Notes: a model not told the origin generated them from the sequence alone. 64,000 bases of DNA from Bryobacterales bacterium (GCA_963738345.1 CAVTWI010000002.1:3421860-3485859), one strand, 5' to 3'. Numbered from the stretch's first letter, positions 28,155 through 48,700 are shown. A program made the numbers and translations.

Positions 28155-28598
28155 TCATTCGACGGGCGTGCCGTAAGGCGTCAGCACTCTCACGCCTTCG
28201 GTATTTTCTTGGCGGGCGATGCGCCATCCGGCGGGCGACTGTTGTAGGAAATACATCTGGGCTTCGTTGCGGTCACTGTAAACATACTCGACGCGTAAGC
28301 GGACCTCCCCTTCGGCAACGGTCTGAGGCTCCTGGATGGCGACGCCCTTCACCGAACCGTTAAAGCGGCGAATATAGTCGGCCAGGGATGCATCGCCTTT
28401 CTCTTTCACGATCTGGCGGAGCGAGCTTTCCATCGGGCCGGTGAAGCATGCCAAGTATGTGCCGACATCACCGTCGCGGGCCGCATCCATCATGGCGTAG
28501 ACGGTATCCTGCGGCGTCTTTGGCGCGCTGGAGCGAAGGATTGCGGGAGGGCGCCAGGCACCGCGTTTGGCGGCAACCAGGGTGAGGGCGCCGGCCAA
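28155..28598 (-). CDS. small hypothetical protein (NTF2-like fold?), last gene of the ATPase/SPFH array; true start probably internal (MMDAARDGD...)
   Basis: ORF overlaps the 3' end of the hflK-like gene if the full ORF is used. Confidence 0.35.
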   Translation of the reverse strand: MAGALTLVAAKRGAWRPPAILRSSAPKTPQDTVYAMMDAARDGDVGTYLACFTGPMESSLRQIVKEKGDASLADYIRRFNGSVKGVAIQEPQTVAEGEVRLRVEYVYSDRNEAQMYFLQQSPAGWRIARQENTEGVRVLTPYGTPVE

Positions 28599-30558: not shown

Positions 30559-30599
30559 CAGATATAGTGCGTTTTTTTAAGATGCATGATTTCCGTCTT

Positions 30600-31698: not shown

Positions 31699-33574
31699 AC
31701 AGGCCGCTACGGCGCTCGACGCGCAGCAGGCGCAGGGAATTCAAGACTACTAATAAAGATGCGATCTGGTGGGTGACGGCCGCGCCGATGGGTCCCAGTT
31801 TGCCGGTGGCGGCAGCGGTGATGGCGACGGCATTCACGATGCCCGCGAAGATGATGATATTTTGCCAAGCCGTGCGGAGGGCGCGGCGGCTCACTTCGAA
31901 AAGCTGGGGCAGCGCTTCCAGGGAGTGACCTAGGAAGACCACGCCTGCGGCTTCAGCGGTGATATCGTTGGCGCCACCGACGGCGATGCCGACATCCGCG
32001 GCGGCTAGTGCGGGAGCGTCGTTCAGTCCGTCGCCCACCATGGCAACGTGGTGACCATGGGCGGTGGCATGGCGGATGCGTTCCAGCTTATCTTCGGGCA
32101 GCAGCCCGGCGGCGACGTCGCGGAGGCCGGCCTCGCGGGCAATGGCTTCGGCCGCGCGCTGGCGATCGCCGGTGAGCATGGTGAGACGCGAAATCTCAAG
32201 GTGCTCGAGTTCATGGACGGCGCGGCGGGCGCCTTCGCGGAGGCGATCGCGAAGTAGGAGGCTGCCGGCCAGCACTCCGTTTTCGGCGATCAGGACCGCG
32301 GTGGCTCCGTAGCGATCGGCTTCTTCGAGTAGCGGTTCGAGGCCGGTGACATGGTGGTCGGCCAGGAATGCCGCGTTTCCGGCGATGATGGTGCGGCCTC
32401 CGGCGCGGGCGGTGGCGCCACGGCCGGGCACGATATTCGACTCGTCAGGGGGGGGGATGGGCAGGGCGCGATGCCGGGCTTCGTCCAGGATGGCGCGCGC
32501 CAGGACGTGCTCGGAACCGTACTCGGCAGTGGCTGCCAGTGACAGGACTTCGGACTCGGTGCGCCCGACGGCAGTGACTTTCACTACTCCGAAGCGGCCT
32601 TCGGTGATGGTGCCGGTCTTATCGAAGAAGACTGTGTCGATTTTGGCAGCCGCTTGTAGGACGGTACCGCCGCGCACCAGAATACCGCGCCGGGCCAGAC
32701 CTCCTATGGCGGCGACCATGGCCGCGGGAGTGGCGAGGATTAGGGCACAGGGGCAGGCGACGATCAAGACAGAGACGGTGCGCAGCCAATCGCGGGTGAA
32801 GTAGAAAGTGAGCCCAGCGACCAGCATCAGAGCGGGTAGGAAGTAGCGGGCAAAACGATCGGCGAGGCGTTCTACGGGGGCGCGCTTTTCGCGAGCGTGC
32901 TCGACGAGTTTAATTACGCGGGCGAGAGTGGTTTCCGATCCGGCGCGAGTTACGGTGATGCGCAGGGGGCCGAGACCGTTGAGCGTTCCAGAGAATACGG
33001 GGTCGCCGGCGCTCTTATCGCGCGGGAGCGGTTCGCCGGTGATGGTGCTTTCGTCGATGCTGGAGGTGCCGTGAAAGATTACGCCATCGGCGGCGACACG
33101 CTCGCCGGGCCGGACCAACACGACGTCCCCGGGCACCAACTGGGCGGCGTCTACTTCAGCCTCGACACCGTCCCGAAGGACGCGCGCGTGGCGCGGCAGT
33201 TGTTCCACGAAGCGTTGAATGGCGGCGTGAGTACGGCCCGCCGCGTAGCCTTCCAGCGCTTCGCCGATCAGCATGATGAACATGGCTTCGGCGGCGGCGA
33301 GAAACTGGCCAGAGGCGAGAGCCGCGATTACCGCCACGCAAATGGCAAGATCAGCCGAAATCTTGCGTTGTAGCAAACCGGAGATAGCGGTGAAGAAGGT
33401 ACGGTATCCGGCGATTAGAGTGAGTATGGCGGCGGTGTCTATGCCTGCGATGGTGGTGAAAGCGCCGGTTACATTGAGTAATAGAAGGATGCCGATGAAG
33501 GCGGCGAAGCCGAACTGTTGGATCAGTTGCTTGCGTACATCGTATACCGGTTCCTTAGGTAAATGAACGTGCAT
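31699..33574 (-). CDS. heavy-metal P1B-type ATPase (CPC motif) lacking an N-terminal HMA domain; no stop codon before the HflK-like segment
   Basis: TM6 IVACPCALILATPAAM, phosphorylation site DKTGTITEG, hinge GDGLNDAPALAAADVGIAVG; starts 3 nt after the stop of the upstream propeller-PHP paralog. Confidence 0.8.
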
Positions 33575-33577
33575 AAG

Positions 33578-36466
33578 TTATCTCTTTTGGATCCATACGG
33601 GCGAACTCCAGGCGAGGTTGCCATCCTCCTGCTCGACGCGGACGTAATAGCGGTTCTCGCCCGGCACGGGGTGCGGGTCCATGTAAGTGAACTGCGAGTG
33701 GCGTTCGCCGGTGGGGGTGACCTCGTAGGCGTACGACTCGTTGTGAATGACGGCGATGCGCCGGATGGGCCCGGTACCGACGGCGTTGACGCGAAGCACA
33801 TACTGGCTGGTGGCGGGGATTTCGTCGCCTTGCAGATACTCACGACCGCCAGCCTCGACGCGGAAATCTAGAATGATGTTGTCAGTGGCGCCGTAGGAAT
33901 GGCGCTTGCGCATGGCGTCGACAAGGTCCTGACGGCCGGTGCCGGTAGCCAGGATGCAGGAGTAGGAAATGTGAGTAGAGCAATGGTCAGATGCGGCTTC
34001 GAAGCCGATGCGATAGCCCTTGGCCAGTGCATTCCAAATGAAACCCGCGGGGCGGTAGCCACTACGCTGGGTGTATAGCTTTTCGGCGGTGGGAGCTTTC
34101 GGTCCACCTTCATGCTCGTAGGCGTCGCGATGACCCTGGTACACTTCGACCAACGGTTCGAGCGTGTTGTCATGATCCTGCCAGTCGGTGCCTTGATCCG
34201 TGGCGGTGGTGTGACGAAAAGCCAGCCCGTCATATTGGCGCAAGTACGGAAGCACGCGGGTAGCGGAGCGGATGGTGCCCGGTTTGTCGGGTCCCGTTTG
34301 CTCGGCAGGATCGATAGGCAAGATGGGAATATCGCGCTTGGTGAAAACGATATTGCGGTGTCCGTTGGGGTAAACGACGCTGCGTTCGTAGGCGTAAAGA
34401 GTAGTCAAGCGGTGAGTGACTTGAAAGACATCGCAGGACTTTTGTGTCTTCCACCAGTTGTAAGATGTGCCGCCACCCTGATGATCGGTGACGGTGGAAA
34501 AGTCCAGACTGGCGGCGTCGAGAGCATAGCGGTAGAAATCCCATAGCGAGCCATCACCTACGCCGTCGGTGGAGAGGGATGTGTGACGATGTAAGTCGCC
34601 GCGCAAGACGCGATATTCAGTGCCCGCTACTTGCATGCGGTAATCGCGGATGGAGCGCACGTCGGCGGGCTCGGCGGGATGCGTAGGCGCGGATAGTTCG
34701 GGGCGTTCCACGAAGGGCTTAAAGCGGATTTCCCCAGAGGGGGGGGCCTCGGGGACAGTGGCCGCGTACACGGTTTGGCGGCCCGGCTTGGCGGTCTGAA
34801 AGTCGCGATTGTCGCCGGACCAAGCGGCCCAGAGTTGGCCATCGGGCGTGGCGGCGAGGGCTACGCGAGCGTCGTTTGCGCCGGTAGATTGGGGCAGGGT
34901 CTGGCTACGATGCCATCCTGTGCCGTCAAGGGTGAAGACGGCGTCTTCCCATACGCCATTGGCGCCCCAAACCTCGATCACACTGTTTGACTTAGTCAGT
35001 TGCAAAGCGGCGAGTGCGACTTTGCCGTCCGGAGTTACGGTGATCTGCGGGTTCTGCAAGAAGCGCGGGAGTGACAGGGGAAAGGCATCGCCAAGGGGCG
35101 CTTCGGGTTCTTCGATGCGGTCACCGGTGATCCGGAGTACGCGTACTTTGCGGGATTGATATAGCGGGTTCCCAGCGGTCTTGACTAGAAAGCCGTAGTC
35201 CTTGCCCCAGTTGGCTTCCGCTTCATCGAAGGCCATCCACAGGTGCCCAGCTTTGTCACAGGCGAGTGCAGCATGGGCCTCCATGCGGGGCGAGTGAGTG
35301 ACCGATCGGATTGGCGAAGCTTGGCCTTCGGAGAACGAGCGCAAGAACACGTCGTAATTGCCGCGATCATAGCTATCCCATGCGATCCAGACCGTACCGT
35401 TGGCGTCGGCGGCGATGGCGGGTTCCCAATCGTTGGCAGGGGACTCGCTGACCCGCCGTTCGGGCTGCCATTGTCCGCCGTGAAATGTCTTGGTGTAGAT
35501 GTCGGACTGGCCATCGCGAAAAGCTTGCCAAGCGAGCCAGAGATCGCCCTGGCTATCGGTGGCTACGCGGGGGTTGATGTCGGAACCAGGGGCGCTGGTC
35601 ACGCGCTCGACATTGCTCCATGCGCCGGCGGAGTTGCGGCGTTCGTAGAGATCCCAGTTGCCGTCAACCTGCGCCGCCCAAATTACGTGCAGGACACCTG
35701 CGCCATCGTATCCGGCCGTGGGCCGCAGCACGTCACGGGTCTCGGACTGTTCCACGATTTCTGGGGGGTTCCATTGATGGCCATTCCACTCGCGAGTGAC
35801 TATGCGGTCGCGCTCGCCCATGAATTCCTGCCATGCGACGGCAACGCGCCCGGAGGGTCCGGCGGCGACGGCGGGGAAGTCCGCTTCGTTCGCGGTGCTG
35901 GCGCTAAAGGGATAAGCGGCGGATTCGACTTCGATGTTTCCGTTGTCGAAAGTCAGTTGCTTGCGGGCGGCCAGATCGCCTAGCGAGAAGGTGAAATTCC
36001 CTGCCCCCAATACGTGAAAGCGGGCCGCCATACTGCCTGATACGACCGCATATATGCCGTTAGGAAACACAGCGCGGGGCCCTGGAAGAACGGGGCTTAG
36101 ATCGACTTGTTGAACATTGGGCGTCCAGGCGCGGGTGGAGAAAGAGAATTCAGCGGCGCCACTGTCGGAGGCCGTAATCTGGTCTTCATTCTGAAAGTGG
36201 TAGCCCGCCAGCGACAGCACTTTGGCGTCTTCGGACACCGGTTCGATCCACCCGCGCCAGATACGGGTGGCCGAGTCAGTGACGCCGTAGCGAATCAGGA
36301 TTTGTTGAGCCGAGGCGTTCCACGGGTGGCCGGTTTCGGCTGGCGATTGTGCCCGCAGGCGCGTACCGAAGCGGGCGGCGAAAAAGCCTAGAGCCGCTAC
36401 GGCCAGTATGACGATCGCTTTGCGCACTATTTTCCCGTGTAAGTGATCCACATGGGGGAAGCCCAC
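33578..36466 (-). CDS. secreted beta-propeller (PD40/BNR-like repeats) + C-terminal PHP-type (CehA/McbA-like) metallo-phosphoesterase, paralog 1 (divergent)
   Basis: Repeats ...GRVAVAWQEF, GVLHVIWAAQVDGNWDLY, GDLWLAWQAFRDGQSDIY, GTVWIAWDSYDRGNYDVF. PHP motifs LRGDLHRHTSLSTDGVGDG, TDHQGG, NGHRN, FRHTTATDQGTDW, AASDHCSTH. True start uncertain (overlaps the paralog 2 stop by 40 nt). Confidence 0.6.
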   Translation of the reverse strand: MGFPHVDHLHGKIVRKAIVILAVAALGFFAARFGTRLRAQSPAETGHPWNASAQQILIRYGVTDSATRIWRGWIEPVSEDAKVLSLAGYHFQNEDQITASDSGAAEFSFSTRAWTPNVQQVDLSPVLPGPRAVFPNGIYAVVSGSMAARFHVLGAGNFTFSLGDLAARKQLTFDNGNIEVESAAYPFSASTANEADFPAVAAGPSGRVAVAWQEFMGERDRIVTREWNGHQWNPPEIVEQSETRDVLRPTAGYDGAGVLHVIWAAQVDGNWDLYERRNSAGAWSNVERVTSAPGSDINPRVATDSQGDLWLAWQAFRDGQSDIYTKTFHGGQWQPERRVSESPANDWEPAIAADANGTVWIAWDSYDRGNYDVFLRSFSEGQASPIRSVTHSPRMEAHAALACDKAGHLWMAFDEAEANWGKDYGFLVKTAGNPLYQSRKVRVLRITGDRIEEPEAPLGDAFPLSLPRFLQNPQITVTPDGKVALAALQLTKSNSVIEVWGANGVWEDAVFTLDGTGWHRSQTLPQSTGANDARVALAATPDGQLWAAWSGDNRDFQTAKPGRQTVYAATVPEAPPSGEIRFKPFVERPELSAPTHPAEPADVRSIRDYRMQVAGTEYRVLRGDLHRHTSLSTDGVGDGSLWDFYRYALDAASLDFSTVTDHQGGGTSYNWWKTQKSCDVFQVTHRLTTLYAYERSVVYPNGHRNIVFTKRDIPILPIDPAEQTGPDKPGTIRSATRVLPYLRQYDGLAFRHTTATDQGTDWQDHDNTLEPLVEVYQGHRDAYEHEGGPKAPTAEKLYTQRSGYRPAGFIWNALAKGYRIGFEAASDHCSTHISYSCILATGTGRQDLVDAMRKRHSYGATDNIILDFRVEAGGREYLQGDEIPATSQYVLRVNAVGTGPIRRIAVIHNESYAYEVTPTGERHSQFTYMDPHPVPGENRYYVRVEQEDGNLAWSSPVWIQKR

Positions 36467-39420
36467 ACTAACTCGCCGTTATCTTGCTCGCCCCGCACAT
36501 AGTAGTAGCTGGTTTTGCCCTTGGATGGCGCGTTGTCACGCCAGGAGAATTCGACGTTTCCAGCGTGCGGTTCGGCGGAGTAGACATATTCGTTGTCTTT
36601 CACGATCACGACCTTAGAGATCGGGTTCTGGGCCGAGAGCCTCACATGTAGGCTAGGAGGTTCGGCGGTGGAAAAGACGTCGCCCATCATGTACGGACCG
36701 CAGCGCACGTCGGCCACGATCTGCTCGGTCGATGCGTAGACGTGGCGCTTGCGGAGAGCGTCCACAATGGCCTCGCGGGTGTCACCCGACACCAGCACGT
36801 TGGCGTAACTCTGGTGGGTGGAGATGTGATCCGAACTGGCCTGGAAGCCGAGTTTATAACCCTTCTCCAGGGCCAGATTGACGAAACCCTTGGGACGCCA
36901 TCCGCCGATGGAATCGGTGGCGGAATTGGAGCGCGGCGCATCCGGCATCTCGTAGTTCTGGCGCATGCCCTGATAGATTTCGACGACTGGTTCGGCATCG
37001 GGATCGTTGTCGCGCCAGTCGGTACCCATGTCGGTGGCGCTGGTATGAGAGGCGGTCACGCCGCCGAACTTCTTCAGATATTCGTAGAACAGCAGCGTAT
37101 CGGGCGCATGGCCTGTGGAGTTTTCATCGACCTTAGGAAGGCGCGGCAAGGGCCGCACGCCGCGCTGTGCGAAGACCACGTTGCGGTGCCCTTCGGGATA
37201 CGAAACGCTGCGCTCGTAGTTGAAAAGGGGAGCGAACTTGCCGGGGGTGTAAAAGACGTCGGTCAATTTCTGGGTGGTCCACCAAGTGTATTCGCGTCCA
37301 CCGCCGTTGTCATGATCGCAGCAGCCCACCCAATCGAGCGACGCGGCATCGAGGATGTAGCGCCATTGGTCGATCAAGGTGCCATCCAGGCCGCCATCCA
37401 TGGAAATCTCGCTGTGGCGATGGAACTCGCCGCGCACGATCTGGAGCGGCTGTCCCTTGGAATCGATGCGATAGCTGCGCACAGCGTTAGTTCCGGCGCG
37501 TTCCGATTCTGATTCGACAACGAGGGCCGGGGCCGGGGGCGGCCCGATCGACTTAGCGGGCACCTGGCCCGCGGCGGCAGGCAACTTGATCACGCTGGCG
37601 TATAGATCGTTGTTGTATGGGTCAGGGATTGCGGAACCGAGCAATTGTCCAAGGCTCCAGCCCTTCTTCAACATGTATTGCACTTCGCGGCGCGAGTCTG
37701 AAGAGTTGATGACTATCAGTTCGCCGCCTGCTTTCGAGATCAATGCGGGCCGGTTATCGAGCACATTGTCACTGCGGAAGATATAAGTAGGACCGGTCCA
37801 GGCTTTGCCGTCGTAACTAATTACAAACTCGGACCAAGAGGTGCCGAGGGGCGTCCATACCTGGGGGTGCATGCTGCGATAGGCCAACCAGAGCCTACCG
37901 GAAGCGTCCACCGTGAGCCGGGGCAAAGTATTGCGCGGATTGTTTTCGGGCCAGGGATGCGCGTTCGATGGACGGCGCGTGAACAACTCAGAATCGGATC
38001 GCTCCCAACCCTTGACATTGACTTGACGACCACCGCCATCCTCGCGGATATCGGACAAACCCTGCAGTGCGACGTCGGGATTGACGGCGGGTTGCAGCAG
38101 GCGGCCCGACCGATCGAGCCCTACCATGCGGATGCCGCGCGACAGATAGACGGGAACGCCCGAACTGCGGTGCGCTCCGAAATCCTTGCCCCAGTTGTCG
38201 GATCCGGTTTCGTAGGCGATCCACAAGCGGCCCTCGCCATCGTATGCGATGGAAGGATACGCTTCATAGAGGGGCGTGGCGGCCACCGGAATCTCAGCGC
38301 CCCACTGGCCCGGTGCGGTCGCGGTACGCGCATAGATGTCATAGCTACCGTTGCGGTAGGAATCCCACGCGACCGATACACGGCCGGAGGAATCCGCCGC
38401 GATGGCCGGATTCCATTCATTGCCTTTCGAGTTCGAGACGGCCTCGGGCGCAGAGAAGCCGTTGCCCTGTTGGGTTGCGGCAAAGATGACGCCGCGGCCG
38501 TCGCGCCAACCCTGCCAGGCGACCCAAACGCGACCGCCGGAATCAGTCGTAGCCGCGGGAAAAACATCTGAGCCGGGTGAGTTGGTAATGCGCACGGTGG
38601 CGCCCGGCGTACCATTGTCGATCACGCGAGCCCATAGGTCGAAGTTGTTGGCTTGGTTGGCAGACCAGAAGACCCACGGCTTGCCGGAGCCATCCACAGC
38701 GATAGCCGGCCGGTATAGGTCGCCGCCGGGGGGGGTAATGGCAATCGGCTCACTCCAACGATTCCCCGAGAAGCGCTTGACCAGGATCTGGTCACCCTCG
38801 GCTTTGGCTACCAATGGCGACAAGTCCGTGGGCTTCTCTTTATAGGGAGCGCGCAATTGATCATGATCGGGACGATGTTTGAACTCAACGTAAGCAACCC
38901 AAATGTCACCATTGGCCGTTGCCGCCGCCGGATAATCCTGCTCGTCGGGCGAGTCGGTCAGGCGCGACGAAGGGGGGATCCGGTCAACGGCGACGTTGCC
39001 GTCGAGAGCGTAGTGGAACTTACCGTAAGGCAGGTCGGCCAGTTTGAAGGTGAACGGTCCAAGCGGAGTTGTGACCTGGATCTTGCTGTCCTCGCCTTCA
39101 CCGCTGAGCCATAAGATGACACCGTTGGGCCCCACGGGCGGGGTTTGCCGCTGTACCAAGTGGAGGAATGACAGCACAGGCGCGGTGGAGAGCTTCCACG
39201 ATCCGTCACTGGCAATTTCGTCGTCTTTACCAAACCGCCAAGGGTCAACCTTGGTGATACGGCCGCCGTCAATAGTGGCGGACCCATCCCATTTCTTGCC
39301 GGCCCGATCCATCAGGCCGAGTAAGACACGGACACCCATGTCCGCTCGAATGGGAAGCGCCGCAGCGAACAGCGTGGCCGCAAGCGCGGTGGAATTGAAT
39401 AGTATACGTGAAGTCGACAT
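36427..39420 (-). CDS. secreted beta-propeller + PHP-type metallo-phosphoesterase, paralog 2
   Basis: Signal peptide; GDIWVAYVEF, GKPWVFWSANQANNFDLW, GRVWVAWQGWRDGRGVIF, GRVSVAWDSYRNGSYDIY, GRLWIAYETGSDNWGKDFG; IVRGEFHRHSEISMDGGLDG...CCDHDNGG...EGHRNV...ASHTSATDMGTDW...ASSDHISTH. Confidence 0.65.
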   Translation of the reverse strand: MSTSRILFNSTALAATLFAAALPIRADMGVRVLLGLMDRAGKKWDGSATIDGGRITKVDPWRFGKDDEIASDGSWKLSTAPVLSFLHLVQRQTPPVGPNGVILWLSGEGEDSKIQVTTPLGPFTFKLADLPYGKFHYALDGNVAVDRIPPSSRLTDSPDEQDYPAAATANGDIWVAYVEFKHRPDHDQLRAPYKEKPTDLSPLVAKAEGDQILVKRFSGNRWSEPIAITPPGGDLYRPAIAVDGSGKPWVFWSANQANNFDLWARVIDNGTPGATVRITNSPGSDVFPAATTDSGGRVWVAWQGWRDGRGVIFAATQQGNGFSAPEAVSNSKGNEWNPAIAADSSGRVSVAWDSYRNGSYDIYARTATAPGQWGAEIPVAATPLYEAYPSIAYDGEGRLWIAYETGSDNWGKDFGAHRSSGVPVYLSRGIRMVGLDRSGRLLQPAVNPDVALQGLSDIREDGGGRQVNVKGWERSDSELFTRRPSNAHPWPENNPRNTLPRLTVDASGRLWLAYRSMHPQVWTPLGTSWSEFVISYDGKAWTGPTYIFRSDNVLDNRPALISKAGGELIVINSSDSRREVQYMLKKGWSLGQLLGSAIPDPYNNDLYASVIKLPAAAGQVPAKSIGPPPAPALVVESESERAGTNAVRSYRIDSKGQPLQIVRGEFHRHSEISMDGGLDGTLIDQWRYILDAASLDWVGCCDHDNGGGREYTWWTTQKLTDVFYTPGKFAPLFNYERSVSYPEGHRNVVFAQRGVRPLPRLPKVDENSTGHAPDTLLFYEYLKKFGGVTASHTSATDMGTDWRDNDPDAEPVVEIYQGMRQNYEMPDAPRSNSATDSIGGWRPKGFVNLALEKGYKLGFQASSDHISTHQSYANVLVSGDTREAIVDALRKRHVYASTEQIVADVRCGPYMMGDVFSTAEPPSLHVRLSAQNPISKVVIVKDNEYVYSAEPHAGNVEFSWRDNAPSKGKTSYYYVRGEQDNGELVWASPMWITYTGK

Positions 39421-39429
39421 GCCGGTTCC

Positions 39430-42400
39430 TTATTTGCCCGAGTAAGTAATCCACATTGGCGATACCCATACGATCTCGCCGTTATCCTGCTCGCCACGCA
39501 CGTAGTAGTAACTGGTCTTTCCCTTAGACGGTGAATTGTCCCGCCAGGAAAACTCCACTTTGTCGGTACCGGGTTGGGTGGAGTACACATACTCGTTGTC
39601 TTTCACCACTACGACTTTTGCGAACTTAGCAGTGCCTTCCAGTTTGACGTGGAGGTTGGGGGCCTCCGCGGTGGTAAACACATCGCCCATCAGGTTGGGC
39701 CCGCTCCGCACGTCGGCAAGGATGTTGTCGGTTGACCCATAGACATGACGCTTCTCAAAAGCATCCAGCACGGATTCGCGCGTCAGATCCTTAGCCAGCA
39801 GATTGCAGTAACTCATGTGGGTGGAAATGTGGTCCGAACTGGCCTGAAAACCCAATTTGTAGCCCTTGGCGAGAGCCAGGTTCACGAAGCCTTTGGGACG
39901 CCAATTGCCAATGGAATCCTTCTCGGAGTTGGCGCGCGGGCCGTCGGGTATTTCGTAGTTCTGGCGATCGCCCTGGTAGATTTCGACCACGGGTTCGGCC
40001 ACCGGATCGTTGTCGCGCCAGTCCGTACCCATCGCGGTAGCGCTGGTATGCGAGGCGCCGATGCCATGGAAATATTTCAAATACGCGTAGAGGTTTAACG
40101 TGTCGGGCGCGTGACCGGTGAACTGTTCGGTGGTGATGGGCATGCGCGGCAGGGTGCGAACGCCGCGTTGCGCGAAGATTACGTTGCGATGCCCTTCGGG
40201 ATAATTGACGCTCCGTTCATAGCTGAACATCGGGACGAACTTACCCGGAGAATAGAAGATATCGGTCAGTTTCTGACTAATCCACCAGGAGTACTCGCGT
40301 CCTGCGCCGTTGTCATGATCGCAGCATCCCACCCAATCGAGGGCGCCGGCGTCGAGGACGTAGCGGTATTGATCGAGGATCGTGCCGTCGCCACCGCCGT
40401 CCATAGAGATTTCACTGTGACGGTGGAATTCACCGCGGACAATTTTCAATTCCGACTGACTGCCTTCTTTATAACCGCGAAGCCTGCTGACGAGGCCGAG
40501 GTCGGTTTTATCTGCCACTTCCGGCCCAGCTTGTTCGATGGGTCTGGCCTCTTTGAGCGCAGCCGGCTGCGCGGCGGGGCCGAGATCGATTTCGTTGGCG
40601 TATAGGTCGTTATTATACGGATCGCTTTTGGAGGTCGCAGTGATGCCCAGTGGAGAACTGACATTCTCACCAAGATAGAATTGACGGCGATTGTCGGAGG
40701 ATCCGAGCACTAAGAGTTGGCCCGGCTTGGTGGAAACCAATGCTGGACGATTGTCTAATATGTTATCGGTGTGATTCAGATAGATCGGCTGGCTCCAGGA
40801 CTTGCCGTCGAAGGAGACCAGGTGTTCGGTCCAGACGGTGCCGAGGATGCTCCACCAGATGGGATGGGCGCTGCGAAAGGCCAGCCAGATGCGGCCGGAG
40901 GCATCCACCGTAAGGCGGGGCAGGGTGTTGCGGGCATTCTGCATGTTACGGGCGGCACGGTCGGCCTCGCGCGTCTGCGCGTTCTTCGGATCGGGATCGA
41001 GTTTCTCGAAGTCCTTCTGCACGCCGGCTTTGTCCAGATGAATATTGGCGAACCCGGGGAGGACTGCGCTCAGGTCACCGGCAGTTTCGACGGCACGCCC
41101 ATCGGATTCGAAGCCCCGCAGGCGGATGGCGCGGCCCTGATAGACGGCCACACCGCTGGTGGCATAGGCGCCGAAGTCTTTGCCCCAGCCCTTACCCCCC
41201 TCTTCGTAGGCCACCCACAAGCGGCCCTCGCCATCATACGCGACCGACGGATACGCTTCGTAGCGCGCGGAGGCGGCGACGGGGGTTTCGGCACCCCAGT
41301 TTCCCGCTGCCGCGGTGCGGAAGTAGACGTCGTAATTCTGATTCCGATAAGAATCCCACGCCACCGTCACGCGGCCTGTTTTGTCGGCGGCGATAGCGGG
41401 ATTCCACTCGTTACCTTCGGAGTTGGACACTGCCGTAGAGGCGCTGAACTTATTGCCGCTCTGGGAGGCGGCGAAGATCGACGCACGCCCGCTGCGCCAA
41501 CCTTGCCATGCTACCCAGACGTTGCCAGCGGAGTCAGTGGTGGCGACGGGGTCGATATCCGACCCGGGATCGCTCGAGATCTGGACCTTGGCGCCAGGAA
41601 CGCCGTTCGAGATCACACGTCCAAAAATTTCGAAGTTCGCTTGCGATCCGGCGGGGCGGACGTTCTGTGCCCAGAAGACCCAGGGCCTTCCCTGCCCGTC
41701 AATGGCGATGGCCGAGCGATACAAATCTCCGCCGGCGGGAGTAACGGCAATGGGAGCGCCCCACGCGCCACCAGTATATTGGCGGGCGAAGATCTGATCG
41801 CCACCGGTCGGACTTTTCCAACGCGAGAAATCTTTGGGAGCGGTGTCGAGTGCGGCGCGCAGGGCATTGTGGTCGGGGTTGTGATGAAACTGGACGTAAG
41901 CCATCCATACTTCGCCGTTCTTGCCTACGGCGGCTGAGGGATAATCCTCTTCCTCGGAGGTTTTAGTGAGCTGAGTACTTGCGGGGACGCGGTCGACGAC
42001 TACGCGGCCGTCCAACTTCGAAACGGTCTTGGCGTAGGCCACTTCGTCCAAGGCGATGTTGAAGTCACCCTGCGCGGTGGTCAGTTTCAGTTCCGCGCCG
42101 GATCCCGATCCGGATAGGTTTACGATGATCCCGTTGGCGACAATGCTGCTGACGCCTTGCGCGGAGATCTGGGTGCCGCCACCAAACAGGCGGATGGGAT
42201 GCGTATTCAAGTGCCAAGTGTTTCCCACCAGCGCATCAGTGCCCTCGAAGCGCCACGGCTCGATGGAAGCAATCTGCGCACCCTGCGCGGAGATGGTCCC
42301 ATCCCAGCGGATAGGGCCTTTATCGTTCACTCCGAAGAGAATGCGTACGCTGATTTGGGCTTGGGCGGCGGTGGCAGCAATCAGGACTGCTCCGAGGGTG

Positions 42401-42432
42401 GCGCAGGCTTTACCGATGATTGTTTCACGCAT
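39430..42432 (-). CDS. secreted beta-propeller + PHP-type metallo-phosphoesterase, paralog 3
   Basis: Near-identical architecture and motifs to paralog 2 (GEVWMAYVQFHHNPDHNALRA..., IVRGEFHRHSEISMDGGGDG, CCDHDNGAGREYSWW); 9-nt gap to paralog 2. Confidence 0.65.
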   Translation of the reverse strand: MRETIIGKACATLGAVLIAATAAQAQISVRILFGVNDKGPIRWDGTISAQGAQIASIEPWRFEGTDALVGNTWHLNTHPIRLFGGGTQISAQGVSSIVANGIIVNLSGSGSGAELKLTTAQGDFNIALDEVAYAKTVSKLDGRVVVDRVPASTQLTKTSEEEDYPSAAVGKNGEVWMAYVQFHHNPDHNALRAALDTAPKDFSRWKSPTGGDQIFARQYTGGAWGAPIAVTPAGGDLYRSAIAIDGQGRPWVFWAQNVRPAGSQANFEIFGRVISNGVPGAKVQISSDPGSDIDPVATTDSAGNVWVAWQGWRSGRASIFAASQSGNKFSASTAVSNSEGNEWNPAIAADKTGRVTVAWDSYRNQNYDVYFRTAAAGNWGAETPVAASARYEAYPSVAYDGEGRLWVAYEEGGKGWGKDFGAYATSGVAVYQGRAIRLRGFESDGRAVETAGDLSAVLPGFANIHLDKAGVQKDFEKLDPDPKNAQTREADRAARNMQNARNTLPRLTVDASGRIWLAFRSAHPIWWSILGTVWTEHLVSFDGKSWSQPIYLNHTDNILDNRPALVSTKPGQLLVLGSSDNRRQFYLGENVSSPLGITATSKSDPYNNDLYANEIDLGPAAQPAALKEARPIEQAGPEVADKTDLGLVSRLRGYKEGSQSELKIVRGEFHRHSEISMDGGGDGTILDQYRYVLDAGALDWVGCCDHDNGAGREYSWWISQKLTDIFYSPGKFVPMFSYERSVNYPEGHRNVIFAQRGVRTLPRMPITTEQFTGHAPDTLNLYAYLKYFHGIGASHTSATAMGTDWRDNDPVAEPVVEIYQGDRQNYEIPDGPRANSEKDSIGNWRPKGFVNLALAKGYKLGFQASSDHISTHMSYCNLLAKDLTRESVLDAFEKRHVYGSTDNILADVRSGPNLMGDVFTTAEAPNLHVKLEGTAKFAKVVVVKDNEYVYSTQPGTDKVEFSWRDNSPSKGKTSYYYVRGEQDNGEIVWVSPMWITYSGK

Positions 42433-42472
42433 GTTAGTTTCCGGTTACCTCGACGTTGTAAACTACAAAACC

Positions 42473-43507
42473 TTACGCAGCGCGTTCGATGACTTTGGGA
42501 GTGTCAGTGCGGACGACGGGTCCATCGGCAGCCAGTTCGCTGCCGGGAACATTTGATTTGACGATGGGCCAGAGCAACTGCGCATACCATTCGTCCTTTT
42601 GGTAATGCGAGATGCCATAGGAACTCGGGTAACGCCGGGAGATGTGAGCGGTACCGAAGAGCATGTCCCACAGGAAAAACATATTGCCGAAATTGCCCTT
42701 GTAGAAGCCCACGCCGTCGTCCGTAGTGTCAGCGTGGTGCGCGTGATGGGTAGCGGGCGTGGAGACCAGGCGTTCCAGGACCCAAGCCAGCGGATGGAGC
42801 ACTCTATGTTGGTAGGGAGGACGATCCCACGGGATGCTGGAGTGGGCCAGCGTAGTGATGATGCTCTTCAAGGCCAGCGCGAAAATGGATGGCGCACCGA
42901 GCCCCAGATATACCAGCGCGGCGGTTAGGTAGGTCTGGGAGAAGAAGACGGTATAGAACAAATTTTGGCGGCTGGACATAGCCATACCCATGTAAGAAGC
43001 CGAGTGATGGGTACGATGGAACCGCCACAGCCAAGGTATTTCGTGATGCAAGCGGTGGTACCAATATTGAGTGAGGTCATCGGCGACACAGATGATGAGG
43101 AAACCCCAGATAAACGGCACCCAGGCAAAGCTGTTTCTCATGCCCGGCAGAACCAGGGGCAGTAGTTTCAAGGTGGCATAAGCGGTAAGGGGCTTCACCA
43201 CCAAGTGGGGTAGCGCGAAGGAGGCGATATCCAGCAGCCGTTCGTTCTTGTTCCAGCGGTTCTCATAGAGGCCCAGAGAGAATTCGACCACACCTAACAA
43301 CAGAACGAAGAGACTGAGGCCGTAGGCGTTGAACGAGTTCAACGCTGTTTCGAGCGACGCGCCGACATGCTGCGGCGAGGCCCCGATGGGCTGTTGGCCC
43401 TTTATATAAAGGGCCAGGAACATCAGAAAAACAGGGAGCACATAAATGAGAAGGCTCAACAGCGCATTGCGAACGATACGGTTTCGCGTTTTAGCTTCCA
43501 GTTTCAT
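42473..43507 (-). CDS. sterol desaturase / fatty-acid hydroxylase superfamily membrane protein
   Basis: His boxes HRLHHEIPWLWRFHRTHH and HHAHHAD; multiple TM helices. Confidence 0.7.
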   Translation of the reverse strand: MKLEAKTRNRIVRNALLSLLIYVLPVFLMFLALYIKGQQPIGASPQHVGASLETALNSFNAYGLSLFVLLLGVVEFSLGLYENRWNKNERLLDIASFALPHLVVKPLTAYATLKLLPLVLPGMRNSFAWVPFIWGFLIICVADDLTQYWYHRLHHEIPWLWRFHRTHHSASYMGMAMSSRQNLFYTVFFSQTYLTAALVYLGLGAPSIFALALKSIITTLAHSSIPWDRPPYQHRVLHPLAWVLERLVSTPATHHAHHADTTDDGVGFYKGNFGNMFFLWDMLFGTAHISRRYPSSYGISHYQKDEWYAQLLWPIVKSNVPGSELAADGPVVRTDTPKVIERAA

Positions 43508-43680
43508 GAGGTCTTCCTATTTCGATTGCCCGGCGCGAACGGACTTCGCACGAGTGGCTAAGGCCGTTTGGGAAAGCTGGAGTGCGCCAAGCAGCAGAGT
43601 CAGCGGTACGAGCGTAATGACCAGGCCCACGACGACTTTTTTCCCAAGGAGTGACAAATCGGAGAAGCGCATAGACGGCG

Positions 43681-45231
43681 TTATCCAGCCTTTTCATTGA
43701 AACTGCCACCAGTGATGGGCCAGCCCGAAGCGATGTACTGCTCGAGCTTGGCGTGAAGTTCCTTCACCACGGACGGATTGTCGTCCGCCACAGTCTTCAG
43801 TTCTTCGGGATCGTTCTTCCGGTTATAGAGCTGAGGCTTGTACTGGCCTACATATTTTTCACGATTCCAGATGGCCGAGTAATTCCATTCGGGCGTGCGT
43901 ACGGCGGCGATATAACCGTAGGCCTGCACGACGTGATCGCGCGTGTTGGCTTGTTCGCCAGTGACGAAAGGCCAGAGATCTTTGCCGGTGACGCGCGAAG
44001 GCGGTTTCAGGTTCAGCCGCCCAAGAATAGTGGGTGCGATGTCCGGTATCTGAACGAAGCCAGGCACGCGTTTGCCGGCGAACTGATTTCCGGGCACCTT
44101 CATTAGAAGTGGGATATGGGTGACCTGCTTGCGGAGCCTTTCGGGACCTTTGACAAACTGCCCCTGCTCGCCGAGCAAAGCGCCGTGATCGGACATAAAG
44201 ATCACTACGGAGTTTTCGAGCAAACCCAAATCGGCTACGGTGTTCAGGATCTTGCCATACCAATGATCGACATTGGACGCTTCGCCCGCATAATTCGCAC
44301 GCAAGCGTTCGATTCCTTCGGGCGGTACATGAGCGCTGCTATAGGGCGGTTCGGGCCAGGCGTGAGGGCCTGGCTGCCTCATGTACTTCTCCAGGAACTC
44401 ACGCGGGGGATCCCAAGGCTCATGCGGATCGAAGGCTTCGACGTGCAGGAAGAACGGACCTTCATGGTGGTTCTCCTTCAGCCAAGTGATCGCTTTGCGG
44501 GAGGTTTGCTCCACGATGGAATCGCCATCCTGCAGCCACCGTTTCCTATTGGCAGTGTACTGATTCAGGAAGGTACGGAAGTCCTGACCCTTGCCGAATT
44601 GAGCGTTCAGTTCGGGCTGGCTCAGATAGTCAGCCGGATAGAGATCTAGAAAGTCGGGTTGTTTGCGGGGCGCCTGGCCGTAGAAATCCACTTCCTGTCC
44701 ACGAACCCAATCGAAGTGTCCGTAGCCTTTATGAAAATTGCGGCCGGGCCTTTGCAGGTGGGGAAGGTCGGCGATCAGCGCAGTGACGTAGCCTGCTTCA
44801 GTCAGGACCTCACTCAGAGTGACATCTTCGTTATAGAGTTGATGCCAGCCGGGCAACTGGACTGGCTCAGGCTGCTGATAGTAGTAAGTGGGAACAATCC
44901 GCCGACCGGTGTATAGTTGCCGTCGGATCGGAATAGTTGGCATGCCCTCCGGGTAAGCGTCTTCGAAGATAGCAGCCTGTTGGGCGAAGCGATTCAGATT
45001 GGGGCAGTCGACCCACTGGCTGCCGTAGGCCGCAAGGTTATCCGCGCGGAAGGTATCGGAAACCAGAAGGATAACATTCAGATTGTTTCCTTGCTGTTGG
45101 GGGGGGCGCTCCCAATGGGAACCCCCCGTAGTTCCGGCTTGCGGAGCAGCAACGGCTCCGCCCGGAATGCCCGCCAAGCCGGCTAGGGCGCCCGCACCCT
45201 TCAAGAGACTACGTCTCGTAGTGTTGCTCAT
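43681..45231 (-). CDS. alkaline-phosphatase-superfamily 'sulfatase-like' hydrolase/transferase with Thr in the nucleophile position (TxPxR), Tat-secreted
   Basis: Tat signal MSNTTRRSLLKGAGALAGLAG. Sulfatase-fold N-terminus NVILLVSDTFRADNLAAYG...AYPEGMPTIPIRRQLYTGR, where the canonical C/SxPxR motif is TIPIR. Confidence 0.6.
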   Translation of the reverse strand: MSNTTRRSLLKGAGALAGLAGIPGGAVAAPQAGTTGGSHWERPPQQQGNNLNVILLVSDTFRADNLAAYGSQWVDCPNLNRFAQQAAIFEDAYPEGMPTIPIRRQLYTGRRIVPTYYYQQPEPVQLPGWHQLYNEDVTLSEVLTEAGYVTALIADLPHLQRPGRNFHKGYGHFDWVRGQEVDFYGQAPRKQPDFLDLYPADYLSQPELNAQFGKGQDFRTFLNQYTANRKRWLQDGDSIVEQTSRKAITWLKENHHEGPFFLHVEAFDPHEPWDPPREFLEKYMRQPGPHAWPEPPYSSAHVPPEGIERLRANYAGEASNVDHWYGKILNTVADLGLLENSVVIFMSDHGALLGEQGQFVKGPERLRKQVTHIPLLMKVPGNQFAGKRVPGFVQIPDIAPTILGRLNLKPPSRVTGKDLWPFVTGEQANTRDHVVQAYGYIAAVRTPEWNYSAIWNREKYVGQYKPQLYNRKNDPEELKTVADDNPSVVKELHAKLEQYIASGWPITGGSFNEKAG

Positions 45232-45244
45232 GTTTGTCTCGCTC

Positions 45245-48200
45245 TTAGAAGGTCAGATGGAGGCCAAGCTGTAGCTGCCGTTCCGGTGTGACGACAGTGG
45301 TGATGACACCGGTAGTGGCCACGCCGACCTTATTGTTCGGCAGCCCAAACTGCGGCGTATTAAAGAGATTGAAGGCCTGCGCGGTGAACTCAAGGTTGTA
45401 ACGCTCTTTGAAGGTGGCGGAGCGCAGTAATCCGAGGTCGTTGTTGAAGGTGTTGGGTCCGCGCAGAATATTGCGACCAGCATTGCCGTAAGTGTAGGCC
45501 GCCGGGGCCACGAAGGCTGAGCTATTGAACCAATCGCTGGGGCCCTGGTTCGCGGGATACAGCGCGGCCCCAGGTACTACGTTGGGGTGCGCGGTGGTCC
45601 CGGTATTGGTTGGGTCGAAACTCAGAATCGGAGTGAAGGGCAGCCCGGTCTGGTAGGAAGAAACTCCCGAAAGCTGCCATCCGCCGAGGATCGCACGTCC
45701 CACGCCCGGTTTGTTCAGCAAGGCCTTGCCGCGCCCGAAGGGCAATTCGTAAATGTAGCTCAAGGACAGGCGCTGCCTTACGTCAAAATTCGAATTGCCG
45801 TAGTTCGAAGTCCAATTGAAGGGATTCTGGGGTGCGTAGTCCAGGGAGTCGGAAACCTGCCCACCGTAATCGAACGAGTGGCTCCAGGTATACGCGCCGA
45901 GGAAGCTGAAGCCGCTGCGGAAGCGGCGTTCGACCTGCGCGATCATGGAATTGTAATTGGAGCGATCGAGCGGCAGATAGGCATTGATAGCGCTGTACAG
46001 AGGGAAGGGCCGCCGGGGACCGATGGCGCCGGGACCCGGTTGCGGCTGGTTGTAGTTAGGATCGACGTACAGATCGTGCGATGCGGACCCGACGTAGCCG
46101 AGTTGGGCGGTAAAACCACCACCTAGCTGCCGCTGGAGGTTGAAATTCCATTCATAAGTGTAGGGCAACGGCATGGAGATGGGCCACGAATTCACATTCG
46201 AGTTCGCAACGTTGTTCGGATTGCTGAGCAATCCGGCGGGAAGACCTTCATCCAGGGTGATCAGGGTGTGGATTTGATCTCCGGTAGCGATGGAGCGCAG
46301 GAAGTAGGGCGGATTATTGGTCGGCCGCGAAGAGATACCGAGGTTCTCGTCCGTGCGGCCGTAGAACAGACCGAAACCGCTGCGGATGACGGTTTTGGGA
46401 GTCAGTTGGTAAGCGAGACCAACGCGCGGGGCAAAGCCCTTGGTATCGGGAGTTGCGAAGGAGTTACGGAATCCGTACTGGCTGGCCTCCGCGGCGGTCA
46501 CGAGTTGGCCGTAGGCCGGACCAGGCTGCAGAATGAAATCGGAATAGTGATTGGACGTTTCATACCAGGGCATTGCCAGTTCGTAGCGAAGGCCCAGGTT
46601 CAGGGTCAATTTGGGAGATACTTTCCAGTCGTCCTGTATATAGCCTTCGTAGGTGTGCTGGCGGCTTTCATTTTCGGGACGCGTGGAGACTTGGTAATCG
46701 TTAACATCGCCCAGTAGGAAGTCCGCGAACGCGGAGCCGGTTCCGGCGCGGCTTTGCGGATTCTGTGTATACACACCAGTGAAGTCGAAAACCGGGCGGG
46801 CTTGCAACGTCACGTGGGCGTATAGGGTGACCTGCTCGAAATCAATTCCGAACTTCAGGGTATGACGCCCTTTCACCCACGAGAGGTTATCGAGGAATTG
46901 GATGTTCCGGCCTTGCTTATCGAGCGGCAAGTTGCCGGATCCGGTAGTTGCCAGCGGCAACGTGCCAGGTCCCGTGGTGCCCAGGGTATTGATCCCGCTG
47001 ATGGTAAAGGTGGGCAGGCCGTGAATCTCCGGGTAGTCCGGCGCCCCTTGGATTCCGTATTGGGAATCCAGATTGGTACCGCCAACCTGCTGTACTTCGC
47101 GCGTCTCCATATAGCCCATACGCGCTTCGTTGATTAAGTTGTTGCGGAAGATGTGGGTTTCGCTGGCGGCCACCGAGTGGGACTCGGTCCAGACGTCACT
47201 GGGCAAACTAGTGGGCGGGGGTAGTGGCGCCGGGAGAACGCTGCTCACGTCCTGCTTGGAGTAACGGACAAAGAAGGTGTCTTTCTCGTTGAAGCGGTGA
47301 TCGCCGCGGATGTTTCCCTGCTGGACGCCCAATCGCTCCGTCTGATCGGAGAGAAAGTTAGAAGCGCCGGTTAGATTCGGGAGCGGATAGAGCGACAGTA
47401 GATTAGCGGCCACGGGGTCCCATGCCGTCGAAGGGATTTTGTTCCCGGGGAACGGGGTGCGCACGTATCCGGAGCCGTTGGGGTTCGGGATAGTCGATGC
47501 AGGATCGTATACCGGTGTGCCGAAGATTCCCTGGCGCTGCTTCAGGGTGGGCACGGTAGCTAATTGCGGCGCTATTTCCACCGACTGCTGTTCCTGCCAA
47601 CTGGCAAAGAAGAACGTACGGTCTTTGATGATGGGTCCGCCAAAGGTAGCCCCAAACTGATTCTGGTTGTAGTTCGGCTTCTGACCGGCGACTTGGAAAT
47701 AAGGTTTTGCGTCGAAGAACGAGTTGCGCAGATATTCCCAGAGGCTGGCATGAAACTGATTGGTGCCGGATTTCAGAGTGACGTTGACTACGGCGCCGGC
47801 GGCTTGTCCGAACTCAGCCGAGAACGTGCTGGTCTGCACTTTGAATTCCTGTACGCCGTCGATGACAGGTTCGATCGATTGCGCGGCCGAGCCATCGAAT
47901 CCCACGATTTTGTTCTTATTGTCGATGCCGTCGAGGAGATACGTGTTCTGGATTTCGCGCGCGCCGTTGGCTATGAATGTATCGCGCTCAGCGCCGCGGC
48001 GTGACGGTGATGTGCCGGCGCCCAAGGTGGCGAGTTGGATGTAGTTACGTCCATTTAGGGGCAGGTTCTCCATGGTTTCCTGTTCGACTACCTGGCCCAT
48101 GGAGGAGTCTTCGGTCTGCATTAGGGGTGCGCCGCCCTCGACTGTGACGACAGTGGTGGTTTGGCCAGGGTTTAGGCTGAAGTCGATGTTGAGACGATCC

Positions 48201-48490
48201 TGAACGCGGAGGTCGAGATCGGTTTTGGTTTCGGTAGCGAAGCCGGCCGCCGAAGCGGAGACGCTGTATTTTCCGATGTGCAGAGAGGGCGCGGAATAGA
48301 ATCCGGCGCCGTTAGTGAGCAGCATGGAAACCGTTCCAGTGTCGGTTTGGGTGATCTTGACACTAGCGGACGCGACAACGGCTCCGCTGGAGTCTTTGAC
48401 CGTCCCGGAGATGGCGCCTGTGTCAAGCTGTCCGTAGAGAGCGGGTGTAGCGGCGAGCAGCAGGCTAGCCAGGATGTATCTGTAGCGCAT
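45245..48490 (-). CDS. TonB-dependent receptor with N-terminal carboxypeptidase-regulatory-like (CarboxypepD_reg) domain
   Basis: Signal peptide; GAISGTVKDSSGAVVASASVKITQTDTGTV; ~1080 aa beta-barrel ending ...QLQLGLHLTF (aromatic C-terminus). Confidence 0.8.
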   Translation of the reverse strand: MRYRYILASLLLAATPALYGQLDTGAISGTVKDSSGAVVASASVKITQTDTGTVSMLLTNGAGFYSAPSLHIGKYSVSASAAGFATETKTDLDLRVQDRLNIDFSLNPGQTTTVVTVEGGAPLMQTEDSSMGQVVEQETMENLPLNGRNYIQLATLGAGTSPSRRGAERDTFIANGAREIQNTYLLDGIDNKNKIVGFDGSAAQSIEPVIDGVQEFKVQTSTFSAEFGQAAGAVVNVTLKSGTNQFHASLWEYLRNSFFDAKPYFQVAGQKPNYNQNQFGATFGGPIIKDRTFFFASWQEQQSVEIAPQLATVPTLKQRQGIFGTPVYDPASTIPNPNGSGYVRTPFPGNKIPSTAWDPVAANLLSLYPLPNLTGASNFLSDQTERLGVQQGNIRGDHRFNEKDTFFVRYSKQDVSSVLPAPLPPPTSLPSDVWTESHSVAASETHIFRNNLINEARMGYMETREVQQVGGTNLDSQYGIQGAPDYPEIHGLPTFTISGINTLGTTGPGTLPLATTGSGNLPLDKQGRNIQFLDNLSWVKGRHTLKFGIDFEQVTLYAHVTLQARPVFDFTGVYTQNPQSRAGTGSAFADFLLGDVNDYQVSTRPENESRQHTYEGYIQDDWKVSPKLTLNLGLRYELAMPWYETSNHYSDFILQPGPAYGQLVTAAEASQYGFRNSFATPDTKGFAPRVGLAYQLTPKTVIRSGFGLFYGRTDENLGISSRPTNNPPYFLRSIATGDQIHTLITLDEGLPAGLLSNPNNVANSNVNSWPISMPLPYTYEWNFNLQRQLGGGFTAQLGYVGSASHDLYVDPNYNQPQPGPGAIGPRRPFPLYSAINAYLPLDRSNYNSMIAQVERRFRSGFSFLGAYTWSHSFDYGGQVSDSLDYAPQNPFNWTSNYGNSNFDVRQRLSLSYIYELPFGRGKALLNKPGVGRAILGGWQLSGVSSYQTGLPFTPILSFDPTNTGTTAHPNVVPGAALYPANQGPSDWFNSSAFVAPAAYTYGNAGRNILRGPNTFNNDLGLLRSATFKERYNLEFTAQAFNLFNTPQFGLPNNKVGVATTGVITTVVTPERQLQLGLHLTF

Positions 48491-48612
48491 GGGTTTTGGT
48501 TAGATCCTCTAGTCTATAAGATTAGTAGTTTTTTATCCTACTCGCAGGATGCTTTTAGTGTAAAGACCCACTCGTATGTGGTGGCTAAATAAATGAAGAT
48601 AACGTTAGTCTT

Positions 48613-48641: not shown

Positions 48642-48700
48642 AAGTATAGTATTTCGCTTGACTATTGGCTATTGCGTGTTTTATTCTGGAAATTCAACAA

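Follow-up and report, generated by a model that had tools for sequence, protein, structure and literature searches.

We analyzed a 64,000-nucleotide (nt) stretch of the genome of a Bryobacterales bacterium (GCA_963738345.1 CAVTWI010000002.1:3421860-3485859), hereafter the window, in which an unbroken series of co-directional open reading frames (ORFs), with a TonB-type receptor gene first and SPFH genes last, extends over positions 28.1-48.5 kb of the minus strand (table 1). At the center of this array lie three genes for paralogous proteins of roughly 1,000 amino acids (aa), which we call P3, P2, and P1 in their order on that strand, and which combine a beta-propeller with a C-terminal PHP-like barrel; they are followed by a gene for a P1B-type metal ATPase fused to an HflK-like SPFH domain. 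The data demonstrate the architecture of these proteins, the conservation of their residues, the size of their family, the age of the paralogs, and the gene neighborhoods in which they occur. The best explanation overall, which we put forward tentatively, is that they are old paralogs of an Acidobacteriota family of exported ~105-kDa metal hydrolases that would be loaded with metal by the adjacent pump. An earlier note on this DNA, the observation of which is confirmed and the interpretation of which is partly supported, had stressed a triplication and lipid or phosphoester import; the emphasis has now moved to old paralogs that are kept together as an array, belong to a large enzyme family, and would be coupled to a metal pump.

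The Gene Array and the Age of Its Paralogs

ORF calls placed the three co-directional paralog genes exactly where the earlier note had them, with a gap of 9 nt between P3 and P2 and of 3 nt between the stop of P1 and the start of the ATPase gene (33574), whereas the 40-nt overlap of P2 and P1 is contingent on the GTG start chosen for P1. The reading frames of the genes from the receptor to P1, spanning 15 kb, are intact. An AT-rich stretch of 170 nt lies upstream of the receptor gene. In a scan of positions 29000-48900 for promoters and terminators the counts were no higher than in shuffled sequences; minus-strand promoter-like sites in intergenic sequence occurred solely upstream of the receptor gene, which is consistent with, and no proof of, a single long operon.

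Three adjacent co-directional copies with tiny gaps are what a recent tandem triplication, that is, a local gene amplification in this genome, would leave behind, and the earlier note had proposed successive duplications. The divergence of the copies speaks against such an origin: in BLASTP comparisons (E<=1e-144) P2 and P3 are just 57% identical and P1 shares 32% identity with either, in line with the closer relationship of P2 and P3 that had been noted. We typed every family copy in 85 related loci (designated L followed by a number). P3-type genes (52-86% identical) are the commonest form and adjoin the ATPase gene in single-copy loci; P2-type orthologs (65-69% identical) likewise occur singly in other loci, and P1-type orthologs (68-82% identical) were identified in L012, L013, L026, L044, and L063. 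The complete order P3-P2-P1-ATPase is repeated in L012, L013, and L026, at identities of 78-86% for P3, 78-86% for P2, and 76-82% for P1, and the two-copy order P3-P2-ATPase in L008, L010, L011, L022, and L025. Because L012, L013, and L026 contain separate orthologs (76-86% identical) with the gene order conserved, the genes form a conserved array of old paralogs and not a recent triplication, which is refuted by the low identities among the copies and by these orthologs in other species-level genomes and to which we assign practically no probability.

The family is large. An exhaustive search retrieved 11,067 representatives at E<=1e-3, of which 883 reached E<=1e-30, so that the family comprises at least 883 clusters at 50% identity. 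A word-indexed search retrieved >900 relatives, the best 120 of which are mostly ~1000 aa long, apart from fragments, and are named hypothetical protein or DUF3604 where the source gives a name. Species-representative genomes contain at least 578 family stretches, nearly all from Acidobacteriota with a few contigs labeled Verrucomicrobia or Gammaproteobacteria; several copies per genome occur, and the closest species-level relatives are Bryobacteraceae/Bryobacterales metagenome-assembled genomes from bogs. Literature searches on DUF3604, and on PHP together with sulfatases and polysaccharide utilization loci (PUL), found nothing relevant, the sole paper for "DUF3604" being a Chlamydia transposon-mutagenesis study in which the term appears once.

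Two observations concern individual family copies. L018 and L063, labeled Nevskia soli, and L044, labeled Gammaproteobacteria, carry P1-, P2-, and P3-type genes that are 67-72% identical to those of the window together with the same receptor class, and these gammaproteobacterial labels probably reflect mis-binned acidobacterial contigs rather than horizontal transfer. The family gene in L004 (5843-9873) comes after a phage integrase and small genes including one for an Acb2/Tad1-hairpin protein and may lie at the edge of a mobile element.

Table 1. Genes of the minus-strand array and domains of P2 (window positions)
Feature	Position	Strand	Evidence or remarks
TonB-dependent-receptor-like outer-membrane barrel, CarboxypepD_reg + OMP_b-brl_4, 1081 aa	45245..48490	-	Pfam OMP_b-brl_4 E=3.7e-250, CarboxypepD_reg E=4e-19
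Sulfatase-fold enzyme with twin-arginine translocation (Tat) signal, 516 aa	43681..45231	-	Pfam Sulfatase E=7e-38, weak TAT_signal match
Membrane fatty-acid hydroxylase / sterol-desaturase-type di-iron enzyme, 344 aa	42473..43507	-	Pfam FA_hydroxylase E=3e-23; His boxes HRLHH, HRTHH, HHAHH
P3, 1000 aa	39430..42432	-	widespread ortholog type
P2, 997 aa	36427..39420	-	copy used for structure model
P2 signal peptide, aa 1-26	39343-39420	-	
P2 N-terminal beta-sandwich, aa 27-155	38956-39342	-	
P2 seven-repeat Asp-box-like beta-propeller, aa ~156-630	37531-38955	-	
P2 PHP-like barrel, aa ~631-900	36721-37530	-	HRH motif at 37414-37422
P2 C-terminal Ig-like sandwich, aa 901-997	36430-36720	-	
P1, 962 aa, GTG start	33578..36466	-	divergent old subfamily, all metal-ligand motifs kept
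P1B-type (CPC) metal ATPase fused C-terminally to HflK-like SPFH domain	30428..33574	-	Pfam E1-E2_ATPase, Hydrolase, Band_7; TIGR01525 E=3e-166
Rest of ATPase module: two Band_7/SPFH genes and ~150-170-aa gene, all frameshifted	28155..30558	-	Pfam Band_7 on 29809-30558, 28468-29535

Domain Architecture and Metal-Ligand Residues

The common architecture described in the earlier note is borne out by a multiple alignment in which the three paralogs can be aligned end to end and by an AlphaFold2 model of full-length P2, built with 63 homologs, which has a predicted local distance difference test score (pLDDT) of 88.7 and a predicted template modeling score (pTM) of 0.90. In this model an N-terminal helix is followed by a beta-sandwich, the propeller, a region of alternating beta-strands and alpha-helices (aa ~651-900), and a terminal beta-sandwich. 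We are highly confident of the succession of sandwich, propeller, PHP-like barrel, and Ig-like sandwich and of the assignment of the proteins to one family.

The propeller is made up of seven sequence repeats of the type D-x-x-G-x-x-W-V-A-W in the paralog alignment. The earlier description of its blades as PD40 did not hold, as Pfam PD40 (PF07676) has no match in the paralogs at E<=0.01; the TolB model TIGR02800 scores 19.5 bits versus a cut-off of 343, and the Pfam signal on the paralogs consists of weak Reg_prop and partial DUF3604 matches. Foldseek instead identified an Asp-box, sialidase-like propeller that resembles many sialidase structures of glycoside hydrolase family 33 (GH33) with E values of 3e-11 to 1e-9 at only 9-13% identity, and the best structure matches are sialidases, a Rha-GlcA lyase (7esk), GH145 (5mul/5mum), and ulvan lyase (5uam).

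Each of the C-terminal motifs listed in the earlier note lies in alignment columns without variation among 63 family members. In P2 numbering these columns are HRH 667-669, S673/D675/G676, D702-H703, E736, G744-H745-R746-N747, H792, T796/G799-T800-D801-W802, and S863-D864-H865/S867-T868-H869, and many additional invariant Arg, Tyr, and Trp residues surround the ligand set. All three paralogs contain H667, H669, D675, D702-H703, E736, H745, H792, D864-H865, and H869. In the PHP superfamily, HxH at the first strand is followed by conserved His, Glu, His, and His residues and, at the end, by a DxH-type motif as ligands of a di- or trinuclear site; the barrel motifs conform to this pattern. We infer that the His, Asp, and Glu residues of the barrel would make up the full ligand set of a di- or trinuclear metal center, their assignment to individual sites being a prediction as well.

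P1, P2, and P3 match DUF3604 (PF12228) with 22.5, 38.4, and 33.9 bits, respectively, at a cut-off of 20.4, and 18/18 C-terminal domains of family members also exceed it; the match is limited to model positions 134-252 of 591 (~119 positions), which span the DH to GHRN/H motifs. The CehA_McbA model (NF038032) aligns with P2 over positions 4-314 of 315 at 40.3 bits, below its curated cut-off of 80, has no match in P1 and P3 at E<=0.01, and aligns near full length with 15 of the 18 C-terminal domains (best E=4.9e-10). Taken with the invariant ligands, these results make it quite probable that a PHP-like domain related to DUF3604, with the function of a metal-dependent enzyme, constitutes the C-terminal half and likely that the family proteins are metal-dependent hydrolases. 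That their substrate is a phosphoester, an expectation carried over from the superfamily, is more doubtful.

CehA and McbA are reportedly carbaryl (carbamate) hydrolases, and theirs is the sole curated model whose alignment extends across the entire C-terminal region, so that the proteins might be carbamate or aryl-ester hydrolases of the CehA/McbA type that act on xenobiotic or plant-derived aromatic esters. The score of ~40 bits against a cut-off of 80 and the lack of matches in P1 and P3 speak against this, no aromatic-catabolism genes recur among the neighbors, and pesticides are an unlikely target for so large a family from Acidobacteria of bogs and soils. We regard this alternative as very improbable.

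A second DUF3604-type protein of ~850-1000 aa (E=2.5e-19) is encoded in L055 (8855-11404), L059 (19957-22572), and L061 (13956-16532) and also in L091 (1-111). The 849-aa form in L055, L059, and L061 has an N-terminal half unlike that of the family and has in common with it the C-terminal ending YYYxR..Q..G...W.SP.WI; co-occurrence of the two in several loci points to a broader group of exported enzymes that are related to one another.

Gene Neighborhoods and the ATPase-HflK Module

To survey the neighborhoods, ORFs were called and clustered in 83 non-redundant loci. The ATPase/SPFH gene, which the earlier note had treated as an incidental neighbor, is present in 28 of them and is the commonest direct neighbor of family genes (24 loci). 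The TonB-type receptor class occurs in 36 loci (direct neighbor in 13), another family gene in 27 (19), a sulfatase-fold gene in 24 (12), a second SPFH gene in 19, a ~168-aa gene in 11 (4), a NicO-like permease in 5 (1), and the formylglycine-generating enzyme (FGE) in 4 (2). The ATPase gene starts within -18 to +480 nt of the family stop codon in 20 of the 67 loci with sufficient downstream sequence; the loci with this tight spacing are variously labeled Bryobacterales, Acidobacteriaceae, Sulfotelmatobacter, Solibacteraceae, and Terriglobia, and their ATPases are 52-85% identical. In four loci the ATPase module lies between family genes, and two of seven independently chosen ATPase loci have a family gene within 8 kb. 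The association is strong yet partial, the module being autonomous and the family its frequent companion.

The ATPase has an 8-helix P1B core with FDKTGT and VACPCALILATP (TIGR01525, 554.6 bits versus a cut-off of 346) and has no N-terminal metal-binding domain; at its C-terminus a cytoplasmic linker and one extra hydrophobic helix precede the HflK-like SPFH domain, which by analogy with the topology of HflK should be periplasmic. Residues C274-P-C276, N581, and T-H602-Q603 are invariant in 35 orthologs. P1B-1 ATPases are characterized by YN and MxxSS (Cu+), P1B-2 by K and DxG (Zn2+), and P1B-4 by SPC and HEGxT (Co2+/Zn2+), and the CPC/N581/H602-Q603 signature matches none of these three. In the PDB, CopA (357 bits), ZntA (320), and sCoaT (305) score much alike, and no NCBIfam equivalog scores above its cut-off. 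Signature and PDB scores thus point to no particular metal (for a list of P1B subgroups, see PMC7558416).

Fusions of ~988-990 aa form >100 clusters and represent a conserved module in Acidobacteriota that is publicly annotated as "FtsH protease activity modulator HflK" or "Cu+-exporting ATPase". Intact modules (L086-L092) consist of four genes encoding the fusion, Band_7 proteins of 295-297 aa and 306-336 aa, and a protein of 160-169 aa, the last of which is missing from L091. Compared with the intact 1034-aa ortholog of L038, the frame of the window ATPase is disturbed after ~aa 845. At least five apparent frameshifts lie within ~4 kb on both strands of the window (27127-30700) and affect the ATPase-HflK tail, both of the SPFH genes downstream, the region in which the ~150-aa gene overlaps, and a plus-strand alpha/beta-hydrolase (27127-27915 / 27465-28151); they reflect either a local assembly error or decay of the module. 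A link between P1B ATPases and SPFH/HflK proteins, including that of the family to the ATPase-HflK fusion, was not found in the literature searched.

Beside the family and ATPase-SPFH cluster, five loci (L017:572-1327, L019:16977-17726, L038:18452-19207, L068:18476-19201, and L072:18563-19312) encode a membrane protein of ~250 aa that has an H-x4-D-H motif and weakly matches the Pfam model of NicO, a Ni/Co transporter (E=2.6e-4); the window has no such gene.

The proteins could alternatively be periplasmic partners of the ATPase-SPFH module that serve as metal acceptor, buffer, sensor, or regulator through their His/Asp cluster. Family genes closely adjoin or overlap the ATPase gene and stand on both sides of the module in the four loci mentioned, the ATPase has no metal-binding domain of its own at the N-terminus, and the NicO-like permease belongs to the same clusters. 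However, a four-domain protein of 1000 aa with full hydrolase-type ligands and invariant Arg, Tyr, and Trp residues exceeds what a binder needs, ~70% of family genes are far from such a module, many of them beside sulfatases or receptors, and several copies occur per genome. A role restricted to metal binding is therefore improbable.

Pfam searches confirmed the three genes described upstream of the paralogs, a CarboxypepD_reg receptor, a Tat-signal sulfatase-fold enzyme, and a fatty-acid hydroxylase. The second had rightly been called Thr-type: the sequence T-I-P-I-R occupies aa 99-103 in place of C-x-P-x-R, and the window protein thus lacks the C/S-x-P-x-R motif of formylglycine (type I) sulfatases. 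TIPIR recurs in nine sulfatase-fold ORFs from eight related loci and TxPxR in 118 of the 120 closest homologs (>=60% identity), and this widespread subfamily is routinely annotated as "arylsulfatase A-like". In the alkaline-phosphatase superfamily, members of the NPP, LtaS, and EptA type use Thr as their nucleophile, and formylglycine, to our knowledge, cannot arise from Thr, which together argue for phosphoryl rather than sulfuryl transfer in this lineage. By analogy, the Thr-type enzyme probably acts on phospho-esters.

The gene context on which an import and lipid-processing module had been proposed is conserved only in part: close orthologs of the window receptor and Thr-type sulfatase are limited to ~10 loci that are closely related, and a search of 85 loci found the fatty-acid hydroxylase in no more than 3. 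An operon for import and lipid processing is therefore lineage-restricted. Lipid processing was rejected on account of the rarity of the hydroxylase gene, which is an accessory outside the conserved part of the array.

Other loci contain genuine CxPxR sulfatases, four with an FGE gene in L001 and three in L016. A receptor, a rhamnosidase, and a sulfatase are encoded beside the family gene in L005 and L021, a GH2 gene lies near it in L006, and L091 contains a cellulase-family gene. These neighbors, the sialidases and lyases among the best propeller matches, and the five of seven ATPase modules that are found without the family all favor the main alternative, that the proteins are glycan-degrading, PUL-like enzymes whose propeller is catalytic or binds glycans as in sialidases, GH145, and the polysaccharide lyase families PL25 and PL42. 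The receptor would then import polysaccharides that are sulfated or decorated in another way, the PHP-like domain would strip an ester substituent from them, and the adjacency of the ATPase would be inherited synteny devoid of functional meaning. We consider this unlikely, and yet the most serious competitor of a metal-loaded hydrolase family.

Further genes were noted around the array and in related loci. In the window, a stand-alone CarboxypepD_reg-domain ORF of 161 aa (48665-49150, plus strand) is divergent from the receptor gene, and a fragment of an IS1595-type transposase zinc ribbon (49988-50479, plus strand) lies just upstream of the array. At a distance of 17-40 kb are genes for a GH106 alpha-L-rhamnosidase (2314-5826, minus strand), an apiosidase-like protein (11816-13393, plus strand), and a GH3 enzyme (14218-16431, plus strand), interspersed with NHL-propeller and lectin-like genes, a neighborhood of the plant-pectin-type glycan degradation kind. 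Two 814-aa genes without a Pfam match flank the family gene and receptor in L006/L007 (L006:7560-10004 and 16568-19012); one of them overlaps the start of the family gene by 4 nt, and they represent another companion family.

Proposed Function and Relation to Known Systems

Under the explanation that we prefer, that of an exported metal-hydrolase family served by the neighboring pump, the proteins would hydrolyze anionic esters in the periplasm in a metal-dependent manner, phosphate esters being the most likely substrates and sulfate or carbamate/aryl esters possible ones. Substrates would enter through the adjacent TonB-type receptor, the Thr-nucleophile sulfatase-fold enzyme would act alongside the family enzymes, and the three paralogs would differ in specificity and so cover different substrates. 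The P1B ATPase-HflK pump would export a divalent metal, and the metal center of the paralogs would be loaded in the periplasm. The frequent adjacency to the ATPase-HflK gene suggests a dedicated metal supply for the family enzymes; functional coupling of the family to the module is possible, and we favor it with reservation. A more far-reaching version, to which we give little credence, is that family and module constitute a previously undescribed periplasmic metallation system. In it the pump-HflK fusion, its two HflC-like partners, and the ~165-aa protein would build an SPFH cage over the pump exit, and it is inside or at this cage that the exported propeller-PHP enzymes would acquire a metal center of the di- or trinuclear kind.

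Several results weigh against the preferred explanation. The matches to CehA_McbA are always below the cut-off, Pfam PHP (PF02811) has no match at E<=1 in the 18 C-terminal domains, and the match to the PHP fold, a distorted (beta/alpha)7 barrel, came from a low-confidence model (pLDDT 60). No PDB sequence relative was found with P3, a full-family profile, a C-terminal-domain profile, or the 849-aa DUF3604 relative as queries, the sole match being insignificant (E=0.15); this, and the names of the relatives retrieved, agree with the earlier statement that no function has been described. The chemistry is ambiguous because CehA and McbA are reportedly carbamate hydrolases and PsfC is a di-iron oxidase. 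PsfC is a structural neighbor with the PHP fold, which therefore also hosts non-hydrolytic chemistry (PMC12871164). Of the PHP-type, CehA/McbA-like phosphoesterase proposed earlier, a metal-hydrolase domain with complete ligands and a relationship to DUF3604 and CehA/McbA is supported, the Pfam PHP model has no match, and the word phosphoesterase is carried over from the superfamily. The link to the pump is weakened in turn by the several frameshifts in the ATPase-SPFH module of the window and by the ~70% of family loci that have no ATPase. A pump reserved for the family was considered and rejected, as five of the seven modules, each sampled independently, occur by themselves. The receptor class is likely abundant in such genomes, and its presence in 36 loci may be near chance.

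In soil and peat the Acidobacteriota rank with the most abundant bacteria, and much of their exported enzyme repertoire is unannotated. A family of this kind beside importers, sulfatase-fold enzymes, and a metal pump represents a sizeable blind spot in models of organic P, S, or C harvesting. Should the ATPase-HflK link prove functional, dedicated delivery of metal to secreted enzymes could be tested on it, and an unusual transporter with an SPFH fusion would gain a role; otherwise, a well-defined architecture and a list of catalytic residues are still available for biochemical screening. The metallation system, if true, would allow secreted enzymes to be loaded with metal in bog and soil water that is acidic and poor in metals; it would also give an SPFH-caged transporter, FtsH aside, its first function and PHP enzymes their first dedicated supply of metal.

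All component parts are of known kinds: the propeller is of the Asp-box type, the barrel is PHP/DUF3604-like, and the ATPase is a P1B pump. The family of fusion proteins is itself uncharacterized and not categorically new. Its propeller has the same Asp-box fold as the sialidase-like propellers of GH33, GH145, PL25, and PL42 (Foldseek E of about 1e-10 to 1e-11, probability 1.0). With DUF3604 the paralogs share a stretch of the barrel, whereas the N-terminal beta-sandwich and the propeller lie outside that model, and membership carries no functional explanation as this Pfam family is uncharacterized. The CehA/McbA metallohydrolases share a near-full-length alignment with the C-terminal domains but differ in architecture, and their catabolic gene context is missing here. 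The solved structures of two PHP-superfamily phosphoesterases without an assigned function, the two-domain 3e38 from Bacteroides and 2anu (TM0559), were compared with the low-confidence barrel model; neither matches the family at the sequence level, and the family is additionally exported and propeller-bearing. P1B pumps that supply exported metalloenzymes are exemplified by CcoI/FixI for cbb3 oxidase and CtpC for the secreted Mn-superoxide dismutase. The logic that we propose to be shared with them is a P1B pump gene beside the gene for an exported metalloenzyme, and the DKTGT motif, CPC motif, and 8-helix core are all present in the pump described here. Unlike CcoI/FixI and CtpC, this pump is fused to HflK and has no N-terminal metal-binding domain.

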